DNA of 64,000 bases. It comes from a virus. Under the pieces are notes generated by a model, which saw only the letters and a list, made by a program, of their open reading frames with translations, was not told the origin of the DNA and did no database searches. A program made the translations under genes and the position numbers. Of this stretch, positions 17,708-25,060 are shown piece by piece. Each line of letters starts with the position of its first letter. Within the stretch, counting starts at the first letter, position 1. Where the stretch lies: IMG/VR virus record IMGVR_UViG_3300021354_000450, positions 64,001 through 128,000 of that record. One strand, written 5' to 3'.

Positions 17708-17746
17708 TTGACATTGTATTATTGAGATATTATAATACAATGTCAA
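17708..17746 (+). promoter_or_regulatory. consensus sigma70 promoter forming a perfect 15-bp inverted repeat
   Basis: TTGACA 17708-17713, 17 bp, TATAAT 17731-17736; TTGACATTGTATTAT/ATAATACAATGTCAA. Confidence 0.85.
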
Positions 17747-17768: not shown

Positions 17769-18038
17769 ATGTCAAAAGTATTTGGTGCCCCAGAACAAGC
17801 AAAAATCCGTCAATTAATCTCAGAAGGCGTAACTGTCTTACAAGAAGTTCAAGATTTAAACGAAGGGTTAAATGATACGATTAAAGCTGTAGCAGAAGAA
17901 CTCGAAGTAAAACCAAGCATTATTAAAAAAGCAATTAAAGTTGCAATGAAAGGTGATTGGGATCGTGTATTTACAGAATTTGACGATTTAGAAACTATCG
18001 TTGAAATTAGCGGTCACGCTATTCGTCCAGATGAATAA
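17769..18038 (+). CDS. small dsDNA-binding protein (T4 DsbA / GapR-like)
   Basis: 89-aa helical protein with IKAVAEELEVKPSIIKKAIKVA pattern; upstream of DNA polymerase. Confidence 0.6.
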   Translation: MSKVFGAPEQAKIRQLISEGVTVLQEVQDLNEGLNDTIKAVAEELEVKPSIIKKAIKVAMKGDWDRVFTEFDDLETIVEISGHAIRPDE

Positions 18039-18064
18039 CAAGTTTTAAAGCAATACAAAAATTA

Positions 18065-18123
18065 AAGGTCCGGCGAGCCATAAATCGCAACTTAGAAGGT
18101 CAGTGAGCCATAAATCACGAGGA
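18065..18123 (+). promoter_or_regulatory. tandem hairpin leader element (candidate translational operator) upstream of DNA polymerase
   Basis: AAGGTC-CG-GCGA-GCCATAAA-TCGC and AAGGTC-A-GTGA-GCCATAAA-TCAC, directly followed by GAGGA SD. Confidence 0.7.
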
Positions 18124-18128
18124 TAAAA

Positions 18129-20975
18129 ATGAGTTATGTAGATGCCATCTGGAACCGTGACGAGGATATCGTCCGTGTTGTTGAAAGAGATCCAGTTAAG
18201 GGTCGAACCTATCAAGAATTTCCCGCAAAGTATATGTTTTATTACCCTGATCAAAAGGGTAAGTATAGATCAATCTATGACGATTCTTTAAGTAAAGTTG
18301 TCTGTAAAAACTGGAAAGACTTTATTAAAGAACAAAAGATTCATAGTACACACAAGTTATTTGAATCAGATATTAATCCAGTATTTCGATGTTTAGAAGA
18401 CAATTATCTTAATCAAGAAGCTCCAAAACTAAATGTAGCGTTTTGGGATATCGAGGTTGACATGCAACCATTTGCTGTTTCAGGACAACACCTGGTAAAG
18501 ATTCGAAAAATAAAAACAGTAGTGGATGAAAAAGAAATAACAGTATTTAAATTAAATGAATTACCAAATAAAGAAGAGTATCAAGTATGGGATGATATTA
18601 AAAAGGAATGGGTTGATATTTACGGATGTAGATATTTAGAAGCAGGACCTGGCTATGCAAGTCCAGAAGATGCATTTATGCCTATTACTGCAATTGCTGT
18701 ACACCTACAATGGTTAGATATGCTGGTGTGTTTAGCTGTTCCACCTAAAACTCTTAAAATGGAACAAGCACAAGAATTAATTAAAGATATTCCGAATACT
18801 TTTCTATTCGACACAGAAGCAGAAATGTTAGAAACATTTTTAAATTTAATTGAAGATGCTGATGTACTAAGTGGGTGGAATAGTGAAGGCTTTGATATGC
18901 CGTATACTGTTAATCGTGTAATAAAAACTCTAAGTAAAGAAGATACTAGACGTTTTTGTTTGTTTGACCAATTTCCAAAGAAACGTGAATACGAAAAATA
19001 CGGAAAGAAAGCAAGTACATATGATCTTGTCGGTCGCGTACATCTTGATAGTCTTGAACTTTATAGAAAATATACCTACGAAGAAAGACACACTTATCGA
19101 TTAGATGCAATTGGTGAGATGGAAGTCGGTGAAACTAAAACTGTTTATGAAGGTACACTTGATCAATTATACAATAATGATTTTCGTACATTTATTCTTT
19201 ATAATAGACAAGATACCGCACTATTAGACAAGTTAGATAAAAAACTTAAATTTATTGACCTTGCTAATACAATTGCACATGAAAATGCAGTTTTGATTGC
19301 AACAACTATGGGTGCAGTTGCAGTAACAGAACAAGCAATTATAATTGAATCACATTCAAAAGGTTTAATTGTTCCAAGTCGTCCAAGAAAAGATGATACT
19401 GCTGATAATCAAGCAGCAGGTGCTTATGTTGCTTATCCAAAAAAAGGATTGCATGATTGGATAGGGTCAATGGATATAAACTCTCTATATCCGAGTGCTA
19501 TTCGTGCATTAAACATGGGTCCAGAAACTATTATTGGTCAACTAAGACAAGATTATTCAAAAGAAGAAATTGCTACCAAGATGGCAAAGAATGGCGGTAA
19601 GTTTGCATTAGCGTGGGAAGGAAAGTTTGGCAGTAATGAATATGAATTTGTTATGGCAAAAGATAAATCACATGATATAATTGTTGATTGGGAAAACGGA
19701 TCAACTGATGTACTAAGTGGTGCTCAAATCTACGAAATGATTTTTAATAGCAATCAACCTTGGATATTAAGTGCAAACGGTACAATCTTTACTTATGAAA
19801 AAGAAGGTATTATTCCAGGTTTGTTAAAAAGATGGTATTCCGAACGTAAGTCCCTTCAAGCAAAACTTAAAGATGCAATTAAAGCAGAAAACGAAGTTGA
19901 AGAAGAATATTGGGATAAACGACAATTGGTAAAAAAGATTTTGCTAAACAGTTTATACGGTGCTATTTTAAATTCAGGATGTAGATTCTTTGATAAACGG
20001 ATCGGTCAATCAACTACATTAACTGGTAGACGTATCGCTCGTCATATGGCTGCAAAAGTAAATGAATATGTTGCAGGCGAATACGATTATATTGGAAAAA
20101 GTATTATATACGGTGATACTGACTCTGTTTATTTTAGTGCATGGCCAATTTTAAAACATGATATCCAAAAAGGACTTATTCCTTGGAACAAAGATACAGT
20201 TGTTCAATTATATGATCAAATTTCTGATGAAGTTAATGCTACATTTCCAAAGTTTATGCTTGATGATTTTCATGTGCCAAAATCACGTGGTGAAGTAATT
20301 AAAGCAGGACGAGAAATTGTTGCTATCAAAGGTTTGTTTATTACTAAGAAAAGATATGCTGTATTATATTTTGATAAAGATGGTAAGAGACAAGACCAAG
20401 ACGGAAAACCTGGAAAGATCAAAGCAATGGGTTTAGATTTAAAACGATCAGATACTCCAGAATTTATGCAAAACTTTTTGAGTGAAGTATTAGAAAAAGT
20501 TTTAAATGGTGCAGAAGAACCGGAAATTTTAGAAATGATTTGTAATTTTAGAACTGAATTTAAAGCAAGACCTGGCTGGGAAAAAGGTAGTCCAAAACGT
20601 GCCAATAAAATAACTGATTATCAAGCTAAAGAAAAGAAACAAGGTAAGGCAAATATGCCGGGTCATGTTCGTGCAAGTATTAATTGGAATACTTTAAAAA
20701 CAATGCATGGTGACAAATATAGTCAACAAATTGTCGATGGTATGAAAGTTATTGTTTGTAAGATTAAAGACAATCCACTCGGTTTTACAAGTGTTGCTTA
20801 TCCAGTTGACGAATTAAGATTACCTAAATGGTTTCAAGAATTACCATTTAATCATAGTGAAATGGAAACTGCAATTATTAATAACAAGTTAGACAATTTA
20901 ATCGGTGTACTTGATTGGGATTTAAGTTCAACAACACAAGATAATAACTTTAACAGTTTATTTTCATTCAATTAA
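18129..20975 (+). CDS. family B DNA polymerase (T4 gp43-like)
   Basis: Exo I DIE, Exo II WNSEGFD, Exo III YNRQD; pol motifs DINSLYPS, KILLNSLYG, YGDTDS, KKRY. Confidence 0.97.
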   Translation: MSYVDAIWNRDEDIVRVVERDPVKGRTYQEFPAKYMFYYPDQKGKYRSIYDDSLSKVVCKNWKDFIKEQKIHSTHKLFESDINPVFRCLEDNYLNQEAPKLNVAFWDIEVDMQPFAVSGQHLVKIRKIKTVVDEKEITVFKLNELPNKEEYQVWDDIKKEWVDIYGCRYLEAGPGYASPEDAFMPITAIAVHLQWLDMLVCLAVPPKTLKMEQAQELIKDIPNTFLFDTEAEMLETFLNLIEDADVLSGWNSEGFDMPYTVNRVIKTLSKEDTRRFCLFDQFPKKREYEKYGKKASTYDLVGRVHLDSLELYRKYTYEERHTYRLDAIGEMEVGETKTVYEGTLDQLYNNDFRTFILYNRQDTALLDKLDKKLKFIDLANTIAHENAVLIATTMGAVAVTEQAIIIESHSKGLIVPSRPRKDDTADNQAAGAYVAYPKKGLHDWIGSMDINSLYPSAIRALNMGPETIIGQLRQDYSKEEIATKMAKNGGKFALAWEGKFGSNEYEFVMAKDKSHDIIVDWENGSTDVLSGAQIYEMIFNSNQPWILSANGTIFTYEKEGIIPGLLKRWYSERKSLQAKLKDAIKAENEVEEEYWDKRQLVKKILLNSLYGAILNSGCRFFDKRIGQSTTLTGRRIARHMAAKVNEYVAGEYDYIGKSIIYGDTDSVYFSAWPILKHDIQKGLIPWNKDTVVQLYDQISDEVNATFPKFMLDDFHVPKSRGEVIKAGREIVAIKGLFITKKRYAVLYFDKDGKRQDQDGKPGKIKAMGLDLKRSDTPEFMQNFLSEVLEKVLNGAEEPEILEMICNFRTEFKARPGWEKGSPKRANKITDYQAKEKKQGKANMPGHVRASINWNTLKTMHGDKYSQQIVDGMKVIVCKIKDNPLGFTSVAYPVDELRLPKWFQELPFNHSEMETAIINNKLDNLIGVLDWDLSSTTQDNNFNSLFSFN

Positions 20976-21770: not shown

Positions 21771-21927
21771 TGGGAAGTATAAATCCTACAAACAGGTTTT
21801 CTATCTTTTACGGAACAATTCCATATGTTCTATATATTTCACAGAACCTTGCCAATCCGTTTTAAGGAATATGAACTTTAGTAAGGTGACTCTGGCGGGT
21901 AATAAATAATGAAAAAAGGAATAAAAT

Positions 21928-23436
21928 ATGACAATATCATTATGTAAAATCTGTGGTGCACCCGTTGTTAAATTTATCAAATCAACAAATAAATGGTGGG
22001 ATTGGTGCTCAAACAAATGTATGGGTGCTGATCCTTCAATTTTAGAAAAAAAGAAACAAACAAATTTAAAGAAGTTTGGAGTTGCTCATCCGATGGAATT
22101 AGTAGAAATACGAGATAAAATTAAAACAACAAATTTAGATCGTCATGGGTATGAAAATCCATTTAGTGATAAAGAAATTCAGAAAAAATTAAAACAAACT
22201 TATATTGATAAATTTGGAGTTAATAATCCATCAAAAAATAAAGAAATAATTAAAAAGATCAGTGAATCTGCAATTTTAAGATATGCCGATTCAAAAGAAG
22301 AAATTCTTAACAAACGTCAAGCTACTTCTCTTAAAACATTAGGTGTTGCTTCAAATAAGCAATTACATATTCCAAAAGAATCTATTCGTTTAATGAAAGA
22401 TTTAGAATGGTTAAAAGATCAACATTTTATTCAAAAGAAATCATGTCAACAGATTGCAAATGAATTAGGAGTGTCTGCAACTCCGATCTTAACATTTATG
22501 TCAAATAACGGAATTGAGATAATTCGCCATTCCGTTTCACAAGTTGAACATGAAATAAGAGAATTTGTTAGCACGTTAACTGATGATGAAATTATTTTTA
22601 ATGATCGATCAATTTTATATCCAAAAGAAATAGATGTATTTTTTCCAAGACAACATTTAGGAATCGAAGTAAATGGTGTTTTTTGGCATTCTGAAGAAAG
22701 AGGAAAAGACAAGTATTATCACATTAATAAGACAAAAAAATGTGAAGATAAACAAATTCAACTATTACATATATATGATACTGAATGGGCAAACCCAATT
22801 AAGCAAGAAATTATTAAATCAAAATTAAGACATAAATTTAATAAATCAATAAGAATTTTTGCAAGACAGTGTCTTATAAAAGAAGTTGATAATAAACAAG
22901 CAGAAGAATTTTTAATTGCAAATCATTTACAAGGAAATGTATCTTCGCGTTTTAAAATAGGATTATTTTATAATAATGAATTAATTTCAATTGCAACACT
23001 TGGAGTTTCTCGTTATAATAAATCATATCAATTAGAACTTTTGAGATATTGTAATAAATTAAATCACACAGTTGTTGGCGGCTTAAGCAAAATATTAAAG
23101 TATGTTGCTAATAGAAATAATATCGATTCAATAATCTCATATGCAGATAGAAGATGGACTGCTAATTTAAATCATAATTTGTATGAATCATCAGGATTTA
23201 CATTTTTACACGAGGCATTACCTAATTACAAATATTTTAAAATAACTGATATAAATTTAACACTTCTTTCAAGAAATCAGTTTCAAAAACATTTACTTGA
23301 ATCAAAATTACAAACATTTGATAGCACACTTACAGAATATGAAAATATGACCATAAATGGATATTTTAGAATTTGGGATTGCGGCAATTTAGTATATATT
23401 TGGAAAAATAACAAAAAGGAAAAACATGAAATATAA
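21928..23436 (+). mobile_element. free-standing Hef-like PD-(D/E)xK homing endonuclease gene
   Basis: N-terminal CxxC...C zinc motif, repeated KxTNLxxxG-xNP units, nuclease EIDVF...IEVNGVFWH, C-terminal YADRRW...GYFRIWDCG; TAAATA at 21903. Confidence 0.75.
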
Positions 23437-25060
23437 ACCACCAGTAGATCTAACTCAAGGCGTTGGCGATTCGGCTGTATTTTTGCCAGCTATCAGTTCG
23501 TTTTATTCAACATATATTGCAAAACAACGACTTGAAGAATTTGTTCCAACTGATCGAATCCCAAAAGGATTCGATCGTGGGATCGAAGGAATGAATTTTT
23601 TAAATCCAGAAGACGGATACTTTACTTACAAGTACGGGCTATATTCAGCAGGACATGCACAATTAGATCTTAATAAAAGTCTAATTCAAGAATCAATGAT
23701 TCAACAACGCGATAGAAAAAACACTATGATTCTAGGTGACTCAGGTGGTTATCAAATAGGAAAAGGTGTTCTTAAATTTGATTGGTTAAACTTCGATGGT
23801 CCTAGTGCAAATAAAACTCGTCAAAGCATTTTAGAATGGTTAGAATTAACTGCTGATTGGTCAATGATGCTTGACGTGCCGACCTGGGCTTGTGATCATA
23901 TTCATAGTCCAAAAACAGGTTTAAAAACATTTGAAGACTGTTTAGAAAAAACACGTTTTAATAATGATTACTTTTTACAAAATCGGTTAGGACAAACTAA
24001 ATGGTTAAATGTATTACAAGGTGGTGATTGGGATACTGCTGAAAAATGGTATCTTGGTGTAAAAGAGTTTAGTGATCCAACCGGTCCTTATGCTGGTAAA
24101 GAAGCAGAAGGATGGGCATTTGGAGGTGCTAACATGTGTAAAATGGATATCACTTTAAAACGTCTAATGACCATGCGTGAAGATAAGTTATTAGATGGAA
24201 AAAATTGGATTCACTTTTTAGGAACAGCACAGTTAGATTGGAGTTGTTACTTAACATCAATTCAACGTCAAATTAGAAAACATATAAATCCAGAACTTAC
24301 TATATCATTCGATTGTGCAAGTCCTTTTATCGCAACAGCACATGGTCTTGTTTATACTAATGCACAACACACAACTAAACGTTGGAGTGTTATTATGGAT
24401 AAAGCAATGGATAATAAAGGACTTGCCGGCAGTGAAATTCCATTTCCATTTGAAAGTGAATTTGGTAGACGGTTAACAGTTGGTGATATTTGTTATTATG
24501 ATTTAGGTGTTCCAAAAACACAACAAGAATTAGGCGAAGGTGTTAAATTTAATCACGTTGATCCTAATCATTATACTGTTGTTCCTAAACTTAATAAGTT
24601 GAATAAAATTCCAAATAAAACTTCTTGGGATAGCTTTGCTTATGCATTAATGATGGGACATAATGTATATTGTCATATTGTTGCTGTACAACGTGCAAAT
24701 CAATTAATGGATATCGAACGTGCAAAAGCAGAACCAGATTGGCGTTATTGGAACAAATTAAATGCAAAACAAGCAGGTCAAGATGAATATAGTGATTGGG
24801 TTCCAAGAAATATTTTATATTTTGATCGTTTTGTAACTGAATTGTTTGAAACAACTACTAAAGAAGAAGCATTTGAAATGATTGAACAAGCAATGCCATT
24901 CTTAAAATCGTTAGAAGGTGCAAGATTACAAGGTGGGCCTGCACAAAATACATTTAGTAATTTATTTGAAGTTGAAACCGTAACCAATGCAGAAGAAATC
25001 GATCTTGCGAATCCAGATGACGATGACTTACGTGCTTTAGAAGAAAGTATATCAGAATGA
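23426..25060 (+). CDS. TGT-fold guanine transglycosylase (DpdA-like)
   Basis: GDSGGYQIG, MMLDVP, NVLQG, GWAFGG, IHFLG, SFDCASP, HN motifs; clustered with folE and queE. Confidence 0.8.
   Translation: MKYKPPVDLTQGVGDSAVFLPAISSFYSTYIAKQRLEEFVPTDRIPKGFDRGIEGMNFLNPEDGYFTYKYGLYSAGHAQLDLNKSLIQESMIQQRDRKNTMILGDSGGYQIGKGVLKFDWLNFDGPSANKTRQSILEWLELTADWSMMLDVPTWACDHIHSPKTGLKTFEDCLEKTRFNNDYFLQNRLGQTKWLNVLQGGDWDTAEKWYLGVKEFSDPTGPYAGKEAEGWAFGGANMCKMDITLKRLMTMREDKLLDGKNWIHFLGTAQLDWSCYLTSIQRQIRKHINPELTISFDCASPFIATAHGLVYTNAQHTTKRWSVIMDKAMDNKGLAGSEIPFPFESEFGRRLTVGDICYYDLGVPKTQQELGEGVKFNHVDPNHYTVVPKLNKLNKIPNKTSWDSFAYALMMGHNVYCHIVAVQRANQLMDIERAKAEPDWRYWNKLNAKQAGQDEYSDWVPRNILYFDRFVTELFETTTKEEAFEMIEQAMPFLKSLEGARLQGGPAQNTFSNLFEVETVTNAEEIDLANPDDDDLRALEESISE

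Follow-up and report, generated by a model that had tools for sequence, protein, structure and literature searches.

Background

In bacteriophage T4, the DNA polymerase gp43 represses its own translation, and the UAAC/UAAA loop bases of its operator are important for this autorepression (PMC3014915). The T4 gene 43 leader contains a hairpin with a 5-bp stem and an 8-nt loop, AAUAACUC, located just before the Shine–Dalgarno sequence (SD). To our knowledge, autogenous translational control of a replicative polymerase has been documented only for T4-type phages, with a single hairpin. The element described here belongs to the mRNA leader of polB, a family-B DNA polymerase gene on a 64,000-nt stretch of viral DNA, positions 64,001 to 128,000 of the IMG/VR record IMGVR_UViG_3300021354_000450 (141 kb, estimated completeness 40%); this whole stretch is called the window below. 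The predicted twin pseudoknot of this leader differs from that single hairpin and has far better support as an RNA, since about 138 distinct natural variants of it were examined. It occurs in uncultured giant phages, within a clade that is very large. It is a polB-specific, uncatalogued RNA structure, absent from Rfam and from the literature searched, and it most likely limits the amount of polymerase made.

The Twin Units of the polB Leader

The tandem pair follows the pattern GGU–linker–stem–GCCAUAAA–stem and occupies positions 18067–18118 of the window (52 nt), with unit 2 stopping at the SD, GAGGA (Table 1). The loops of the two units are identical, and the second pair of the stem differs in a compensatory way, being C-G in one unit and U-A in the other. 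An initial annotation, made from the letters of the window, had already described two tandem hairpins with compensatory stems and identical 8-nt loops, the second ending on the SD; this is confirmed in the sequence, and the hairpins prove to be conserved and covarying in relatives. The statistics of the window by themselves are unremarkable: the loop 8-mer (GCCATAAA as DNA) occurs 3 times against 3.1 expected, which is chance frequency, and the fold of the 102-nt leader (−14.4 kcal/mol, z = −0.79) does not stand out within the window. That is to say, the element is more than chance because of the comparison with relatives, not because of window statistics.

Conservation and Covariation in Relatives

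From IMG/VR, 585 polB relatives were found, of which 80 were kept for the first comparison, and each polB query returned more than 560 related loci. The two-unit leader was seen by eye in 78 of the 80, while in the remaining two (L005 and L006) the element is present 130 nt further upstream. A covariance model of related polB leaders had been suggested together with the initial annotation as a check, and the element is kept in all 170 related polB loci examined (90/90 and 80/80 in the two samples), which comprise about 138 distinct leaders.

In a MAFFT alignment of 63 distinct leaders, the stems and the GGU:GCC helix are 91.7% paired versus 73% in shuffles, and the covariation score is 0.599 versus 0.242 in shuffled alignments, with slid controls at 0.18 or below. 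RNAalifold independently predicts both hairpins, and compensatory changes occur in 9/9 predicted pairs. Moreover, when 87 distinct leaders are aligned by a model, each core stem pair has 0–1 unpaired cells and 16–47 double changes; for the unit 1 stem the figures are 16–40 double changes per core pair, with none unpaired.

The stem sequences vary freely across relatives with their complementarity retained, and the paired positions contain 144 G-U cells versus 15 A-C cells. Since G-U is far above A-C, the selected structure forms in the sense RNA. The same counts bear on the extremely improbable reading that the repeats serve at the DNA level, as protein-binding boxes or as a promoter, or that they recode the upstream gene by readthrough or frameshift. 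The units are indeed direct repeats, and in some relatives the upstream stop codon lies 0–6 nt before the first knot; but stems that change freely while remaining complementary do not suit a DNA-level site, which is rejected on the G-U excess, pairing being selected on sense RNA. A recoding signal is rejected as well, because in 135 of 137 leaders the upstream reading frame either differs from that of polB or is closed by stop codons, and the spacer ranges from 0 to 32 nt.

Evidence for the Pseudoknots

It had also been proposed in the initial annotation that the GGU upstream of each stem pairs with the GCC of the loop. First of all, for pseudoknot 1 the 87 distinct leaders give a first G of GGU that pairs with the third loop base as GC in 83 and AU in 4, with none unpaired, a middle pair that is GC in 87/87, and a U that faces the first loop base as U-G in 78, C-G in 6, U-A in 2 and another combination in 1. 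Pseudoknot 2 is read as GGU/GCC in 82 leaders, GGU/ACC in 3 and GGC/GCC in 2. The U-G wobble at the helix junction is retained in about 90% of leaders, though C-G would be stronger. On a FastTree phylogeny of 133 distinct polymerases, the double change AGU/GCU, present in 5 leaders, corresponds to 5 separate changes, and GGC/GCC, present in 13 leaders, to 12; AGU/GCU is also found in the SD-proximal unit of L409 and L430, which belong to another clade. No half-changed forms of the GGU:GCC pairing occur among the leaders compared, so the proposed pairing covaries.

Since GGU covaries with the loop GCC, each unit is, judging from covariation in each of its two helices, an H-type pseudoknot in which the 5′ flank is paired to the hairpin loop. 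In the polB mRNA, positions 18067–18118 would fold into two tandem H-type mini-pseudoknots, in each of which the 5′ GGU and the GCC that opens the loop would make a 3-bp helix that stacks on a hairpin stem of 4–7 bp, and the A-rich remainder of the loop (AYAAR) would serve as loop 3. The loop consensus is GCCAYAAR in unit 1, where A6 and A7 are invariant, and GCCNNAAR in unit 2.

Restriction of the Element to polB

Two covariance models were built, R1 for the tandem form and R2 for the single unit. With R1, the polB leader is the single locus hit in the window's genome and in each of 5 related contigs (164–259 kb), and R2 gives the same result in the window's genome and in 4 of the 5 contigs. 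By R1 and R2, further copies elsewhere in these six phage genomes (141–259 kb) are absent, save for one weak R2 match away from polB (G004:C1:200719-200746, minus strand, 17.9 bits, E 0.07), which is probably chance. The link to polB noted at the outset, with the element adjoining or overlapping the SD, thus holds at one locus per genome, always before polB. A pattern scan of IMG/VR that was blind to polB returned 80 loci, 33 of them at 44 bits or more and the remainder at 20 bits or less, and all 33 strong loci lead into polB starts of the MSYVDA... type.

Outside this group of phages, the searches returned nothing comparable. The Rfam search suggested with the initial annotation was run, and no family matches: Rfam 15 (including preQ1-I, -II and -III, SAM-II, fluoride and guanidine-III) has no family that reaches the gathering score anywhere in the window, and even at E ≤ 10 none matches positions 17990–18180. 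Against cultured phages, megablast of the locus gave no match, and the only blastn matches of two leaders were two at chance level (E 0.9), both within a portal gene. The element is absent from the leaders of Phosso, GAP32 and 121Q, and literature searches on tandem pseudoknots or structured RNAs in jumbo phages gave nothing relevant. In cellular genomes, where the pattern has at least 80 matches, the 80 loci listed contain no true instance, as they reach 22 bits or less versus at least 38 for every true instance; for the matches listed, the absence from cellular genomes is thus provisional.

A small ligand-sensing motif was one of the two readings offered in the initial annotation. These searches weigh on the possibility of a tandem riboswitch, in which a metabolite linked to DNA synthesis (a nucleotide or a 7-deazaguanine precursor) would stabilise the knots and hide the SD. 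Each unit of about 22 nt would then be a ligand-binding aptamer, and the tandem would make polymerase production depend on a metabolite that belongs to DNA synthesis or to 7-deazaguanine DNA modification; if this were true, such units would be the smallest riboswitch class known. The element does resemble the SD-sequestering pseudoknot riboswitches, being a tiny knot of the H type whose loop 3 is rich in A and whose 3′ helix contains SD bases, and a TGT-fold gene lies 4–5 kb downstream of polB in 5/5 large relatives. Tandem riboswitch units are known to respond cooperatively. However, besides the lack of any Rfam match and of true instances among the cellular matches listed, the element stands before polB and nowhere else in the six genomes, whereas riboswitches usually precede several metabolically linked genes; the unit has no loop 2 and no conserved unpaired pocket; and a knot folded by its ligand would turn the polymerase off, an odd logic for a precursor. 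Therefore, a riboswitch, and with it the aptamer role of each unit, is very unlikely.

Sister Clade and Origin of the Twin Form

Wider sampling was performed with the polB of Phosso and then of L458 as queries. In a sister polB clade, 67 of 78 distinct leaders have as their first hairpin a different one that also covaries (GCUC-ACGUYAC-GAGC type), and after it a single canonical unit of the pattern GGY-N1-4-stem-GCCAYAAN-stem. Most of these units were missed by the single-unit model with default filters and were found by direct pattern analysis. The commonest stem is CCG/CGG, and its 3′ arm continues into AG, so that the SD itself is CGGAG (CGG|AG); 2–4 SD nucleotides lie within the 3′ arm of the unit in 51 of the 67 leaders, and in two leaders the entire GGAG is paired (UUCCG/CGGAG). 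The extra hairpin (GAGUC-GCUC-ACGUYAC-GAGC-AUG at L458:330-375, with relatives in L481–L558) has a covarying stem of its own, with the forms GCUC/GAGC, GUUC/GAAC, GCCC/GGGC and GUUG/CAAC.

In a polB tree of 250 sequences rooted on T4, the twin-unit clade (130 leaves) and the sister clade (109 leaves, mostly single-unit) each have a support of 100, and the Phosso-like, GAP32-like and T4 polymerases, which have no unit, fall outside both. The single-unit sister clade and the tree together point to the SD-proximal unit as the older core, and the twin form looks like the product of a duplication; the duplicated origin mentioned in the initial annotation fits the sister clade that carries a single unit.

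Inside the sister clade there is a 26-leaf subclade of which 25 leaves are without any unit. In the leaders of this subclade that were read, the start codon of polB and the stop codon of the gene before it overlap (TTGA, TAATG), which is classical translational coupling. The unit-less leaders L414–L419, L426–L429, L437–L440 and L448 (position ~401) have an upstream gene of about 95 aa. This natural series, that is, two units, one unit with an arm in the SD, and none with polB coupled, makes the regulatory logic directly testable.

Position Relative to the SD and Possible Mode of Action

In relatives, the 3′ end of the unit 2 core lies 0–6 nt (mode 2) before the SD and 10–17 nt before the start codon, and 1–3 SD bases are inside the extended stem in 29 of 127 scored twin-clade leaders. 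In L005 and L006, the element is located at the ribosome-binding site (RBS) of a 41-aa open reading frame (ORF) whose TGA overlaps the ATG of polB (ATGA). The arrangement fits a translational role, with the element kept at the first RBS of an ORF coupled to polB. This ORF, which sits between the twin pseudoknots and polB (L005:311-435, also in L006), is Cys-rich (CDSC...YCTTRC).

Taken singly, the hairpins have little stability (−2.4 to −6 kcal/mol), a range that includes the T4 operator hairpin at −5.2 kcal/mol. The favoured mechanism is a translational operator that would occlude the SD, with the polymerase as the most likely effector, that is, autogenous repression, as also suggested in the initial annotation; the probability of this mechanism is put at roughly 0.4. 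The folded second pseudoknot, ending at the SD, would block or compete with 30S binding, and in most leaders of the sister clade the 3′ arm is itself part of the SD. Since the separate hairpins are only marginally stable, a trans-acting factor may stabilise the fold. We infer that this factor could be free DNA polymerase, which would repress its own translation as T4 gp43 does, and the two sites would give a steeper response. The polymerase is favoured because the element is exclusive to polB, because of the precedent of T4 gp43, because the 8-nt loop and the YAA core are shared with the T4 operator, and because repression by idle polymerase is a sensible logic.

Several observations weigh against this mechanism. 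In 98 of the 127 scored twin-clade leaders there is no SD base inside the stem. Loop positions 4–5 are fixed in unit 1 and unconstrained in unit 2 in many leaders, so the two sites are non-equivalent. The fold alone (the pairs of the GGU:GCC helix S1, the loop-3 adenines and the closing A-U) accounts for nearly every conserved base, so a clear protein-recognition signature is lacking. As for the precedent itself, some T4-related polymerases do not autoregulate (PMC3014915), and the gene 43 operator has no known pseudoknot (PMC3014915) whereas each unit here is predicted to be one; R2 gives no match on the T4 leader, and by its sequence the element stands outside the T4 operator family.

The same explanation of the conserved bases by the fold alone suits an element without any effector, which would set a fixed low initiation rate or protect the messenger from nucleases, and which would uncouple polB initiation from the upstream gene. 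Such a role is unlikely. It would agree with the related subclade that dispenses with the element by coupling polB to the upstream gene, and with a TAAATA box that precedes the first GGU by about 17 nt in 98 of 137 relatives, which would put the knots near the 5′ end of the transcript. However, the marginal stability of the hairpins speaks against it, and the junction wobble kept in so many leaders suggests a tuned, switchable stability; moreover, the window's own leader has no TAAATA box and is probably located inside a two-gene transcript, so a 5′-end role is not general.

If the SD-occluding operator had an effector other than the polymerase, it could be some other protein of the phage, such as a translational repressor resembling RegA or a small conserved protein encoded just upstream. 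Two near-identical sites would suit a dimer, and the 89-aa gene upstream of polB in the window, which stays near polB, matches a PHROG annotated as 'transcriptional regulator'. But the directly upstream gene changes between relatives and the element stays with polB, and a general repressor should have several targets, whereas there is one site per genome. An operator for another protein is thus quite unlikely. For structural and synthetic work, the element is a compact RNA module of 20–60 nt and may supply an RNA–polymerase recognition pair.

Genes and Transcript around the Element

The coordinates of the units and of the neighbouring features are collected in Table 1. The polB of the window starts with ATG, and its product shares 42–47% identity with the Phosso, GAP32 and 121Q polymerases, all from jumbo phages. 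With 948 aa versus 887–894 aa in relatives, the window polymerase has an insertion of about 60 aa. No terminator is present in the intergenic stretch checked between the 89-aa gene and polB; the two genes are probably co-transcribed, and the promoter upstream of the 89-aa gene is the likely source of the leader-bearing transcript. A perfect 15-bp palindrome at 17708–17746, just 5′ of the 89-aa gene, holds TTGACA-17-TATAAT on the plus strand and an 11/12 match on the minus strand.

Downstream of polB, the TGT-fold protein (544 aa, window 23426–25060) is 81–86% identical to its counterparts in the five large relatives (G001–G005). A search of the relatives with the Pfam TGT model was uninformative, as it misses even the window's own TGT-fold gene, and a protein search was used instead. 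ATAAATA is strongly avoided in the whole window, with 8 sites where 44 are expected (sd 6.4); one of them, at 21902, is 20 nt 5′ of an ORF beginning at 21928. ATAAATA/TAAATA is probably the phage's own promoter core, resembling the T4 late promoter.

Table 1. Positions in the window of the twin units, their parts and the surrounding features.
Feature	Position	Strand	Remark
Promoter, sigma-70-type consensus	17708-17736	+	12/12 matches; within 15-bp palindrome
Upstream 89-aa gene	17769-18038	+	phrog_12534; phrog_639 'transcriptional regulator'
Unit 1, whole: AAGGUC-CG-GCGA-GCCAUAAA-UCGC	18065-18088	+
Unit 1, AAGGTC	18065-18070	+	conserved AA at 18065-18066
Pseudoknot 1, helix S1 5′ strand GGU	18067-18069	+	partner GCC 18077-18079
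Unit 1, linker L1 CCG	18070-18072	+
Unit 1, stem 5′ arm GCGA	18073-18076	+
Unit 1, loop GCCAUAAA (DNA: GCCATAAA)	18077-18084	+	nt 1–3 pair with GGU (S1); loop 3: AUAAA
Unit 1, stem 3′ arm UCGC	18085-18088	+
Unit 2, whole: AAGGUC-A-GUGA-GCCAUAAA-UCAC	18096-18118	+
Unit 2, AAGGTC	18096-18101	+
Pseudoknot 2, helix S1 5′ strand GGU	18098-18100	+
Unit 2, linker CA	18101-18102	+
Unit 2, stem 5′ arm GUGA	18103-18106	+
Unit 2, loop GCCAUAAA (DNA: GCCATAAA)	18107-18114	+
Unit 2, stem 3′ arm UCAC	18115-18118	+	directly adjoins SD
SD of polB, GAGGA	18119-18123	+	direct sequence reading
polB, family-B DNA polymerase, 948 aa	18129-20975	+	Pfam DNA_pol_B and exonuclease domain; PHROG 262
ATAAATA sites	2926, 15670, 21902, 33749, 37391	+
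ATAAATA sites	27032, 27069, 47406	-

Comparison with Known Systems

Several described leaders share single traits with the element. Another replication gene with an H-type pseudoknot in its leader is T4 gene 32, whose operator has a 1-nt loop 1 that spans a 7-bp stem, as is the case in many unit 2 variants. However, that knot is located far upstream, where it nucleates the cooperative binding of gp32 to an A/U-rich stretch that is unstructured, whereas the knots here fill the leader and adjoin the SD, and such a stretch is absent. The preQ1-I and SAM-II types of riboswitch are likewise very small H-type pseudoknots with an A-rich loop 3 and, as in the sister clade, SD bases in the 3′ helix strand; the differences are that here the 5′ flank pairs with the hairpin loop, that there is no loop 2 and no Rfam match, and that the context is polB only. 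In E. coli, the ribosomal protein S15 controls its own translation through the RBS pseudoknot of the rpsO operator (PMC3014915), which is comparable in position, but that operator, which acts by entrapment, belongs to a cellular ribosomal-protein gene, is unrelated in sequence and has a single knot.

Finally, the gene 43 operator is a single hairpin with a UAAC/UAAA loop, whereas there are two units here, and in sequence and size only the YAA core and the 8-nt loop are shared (YAA(R/C) in both; AAUAACUC in T4 and GCCAYAAR here). In its setting, the element is like the gene 43 operators of T4, RB69 and RB49: it is located in the leader of a T4-type family-B polymerase gene, directly 5′ of or overlapping the RBS, with a similar hairpin stability and one site per genome.

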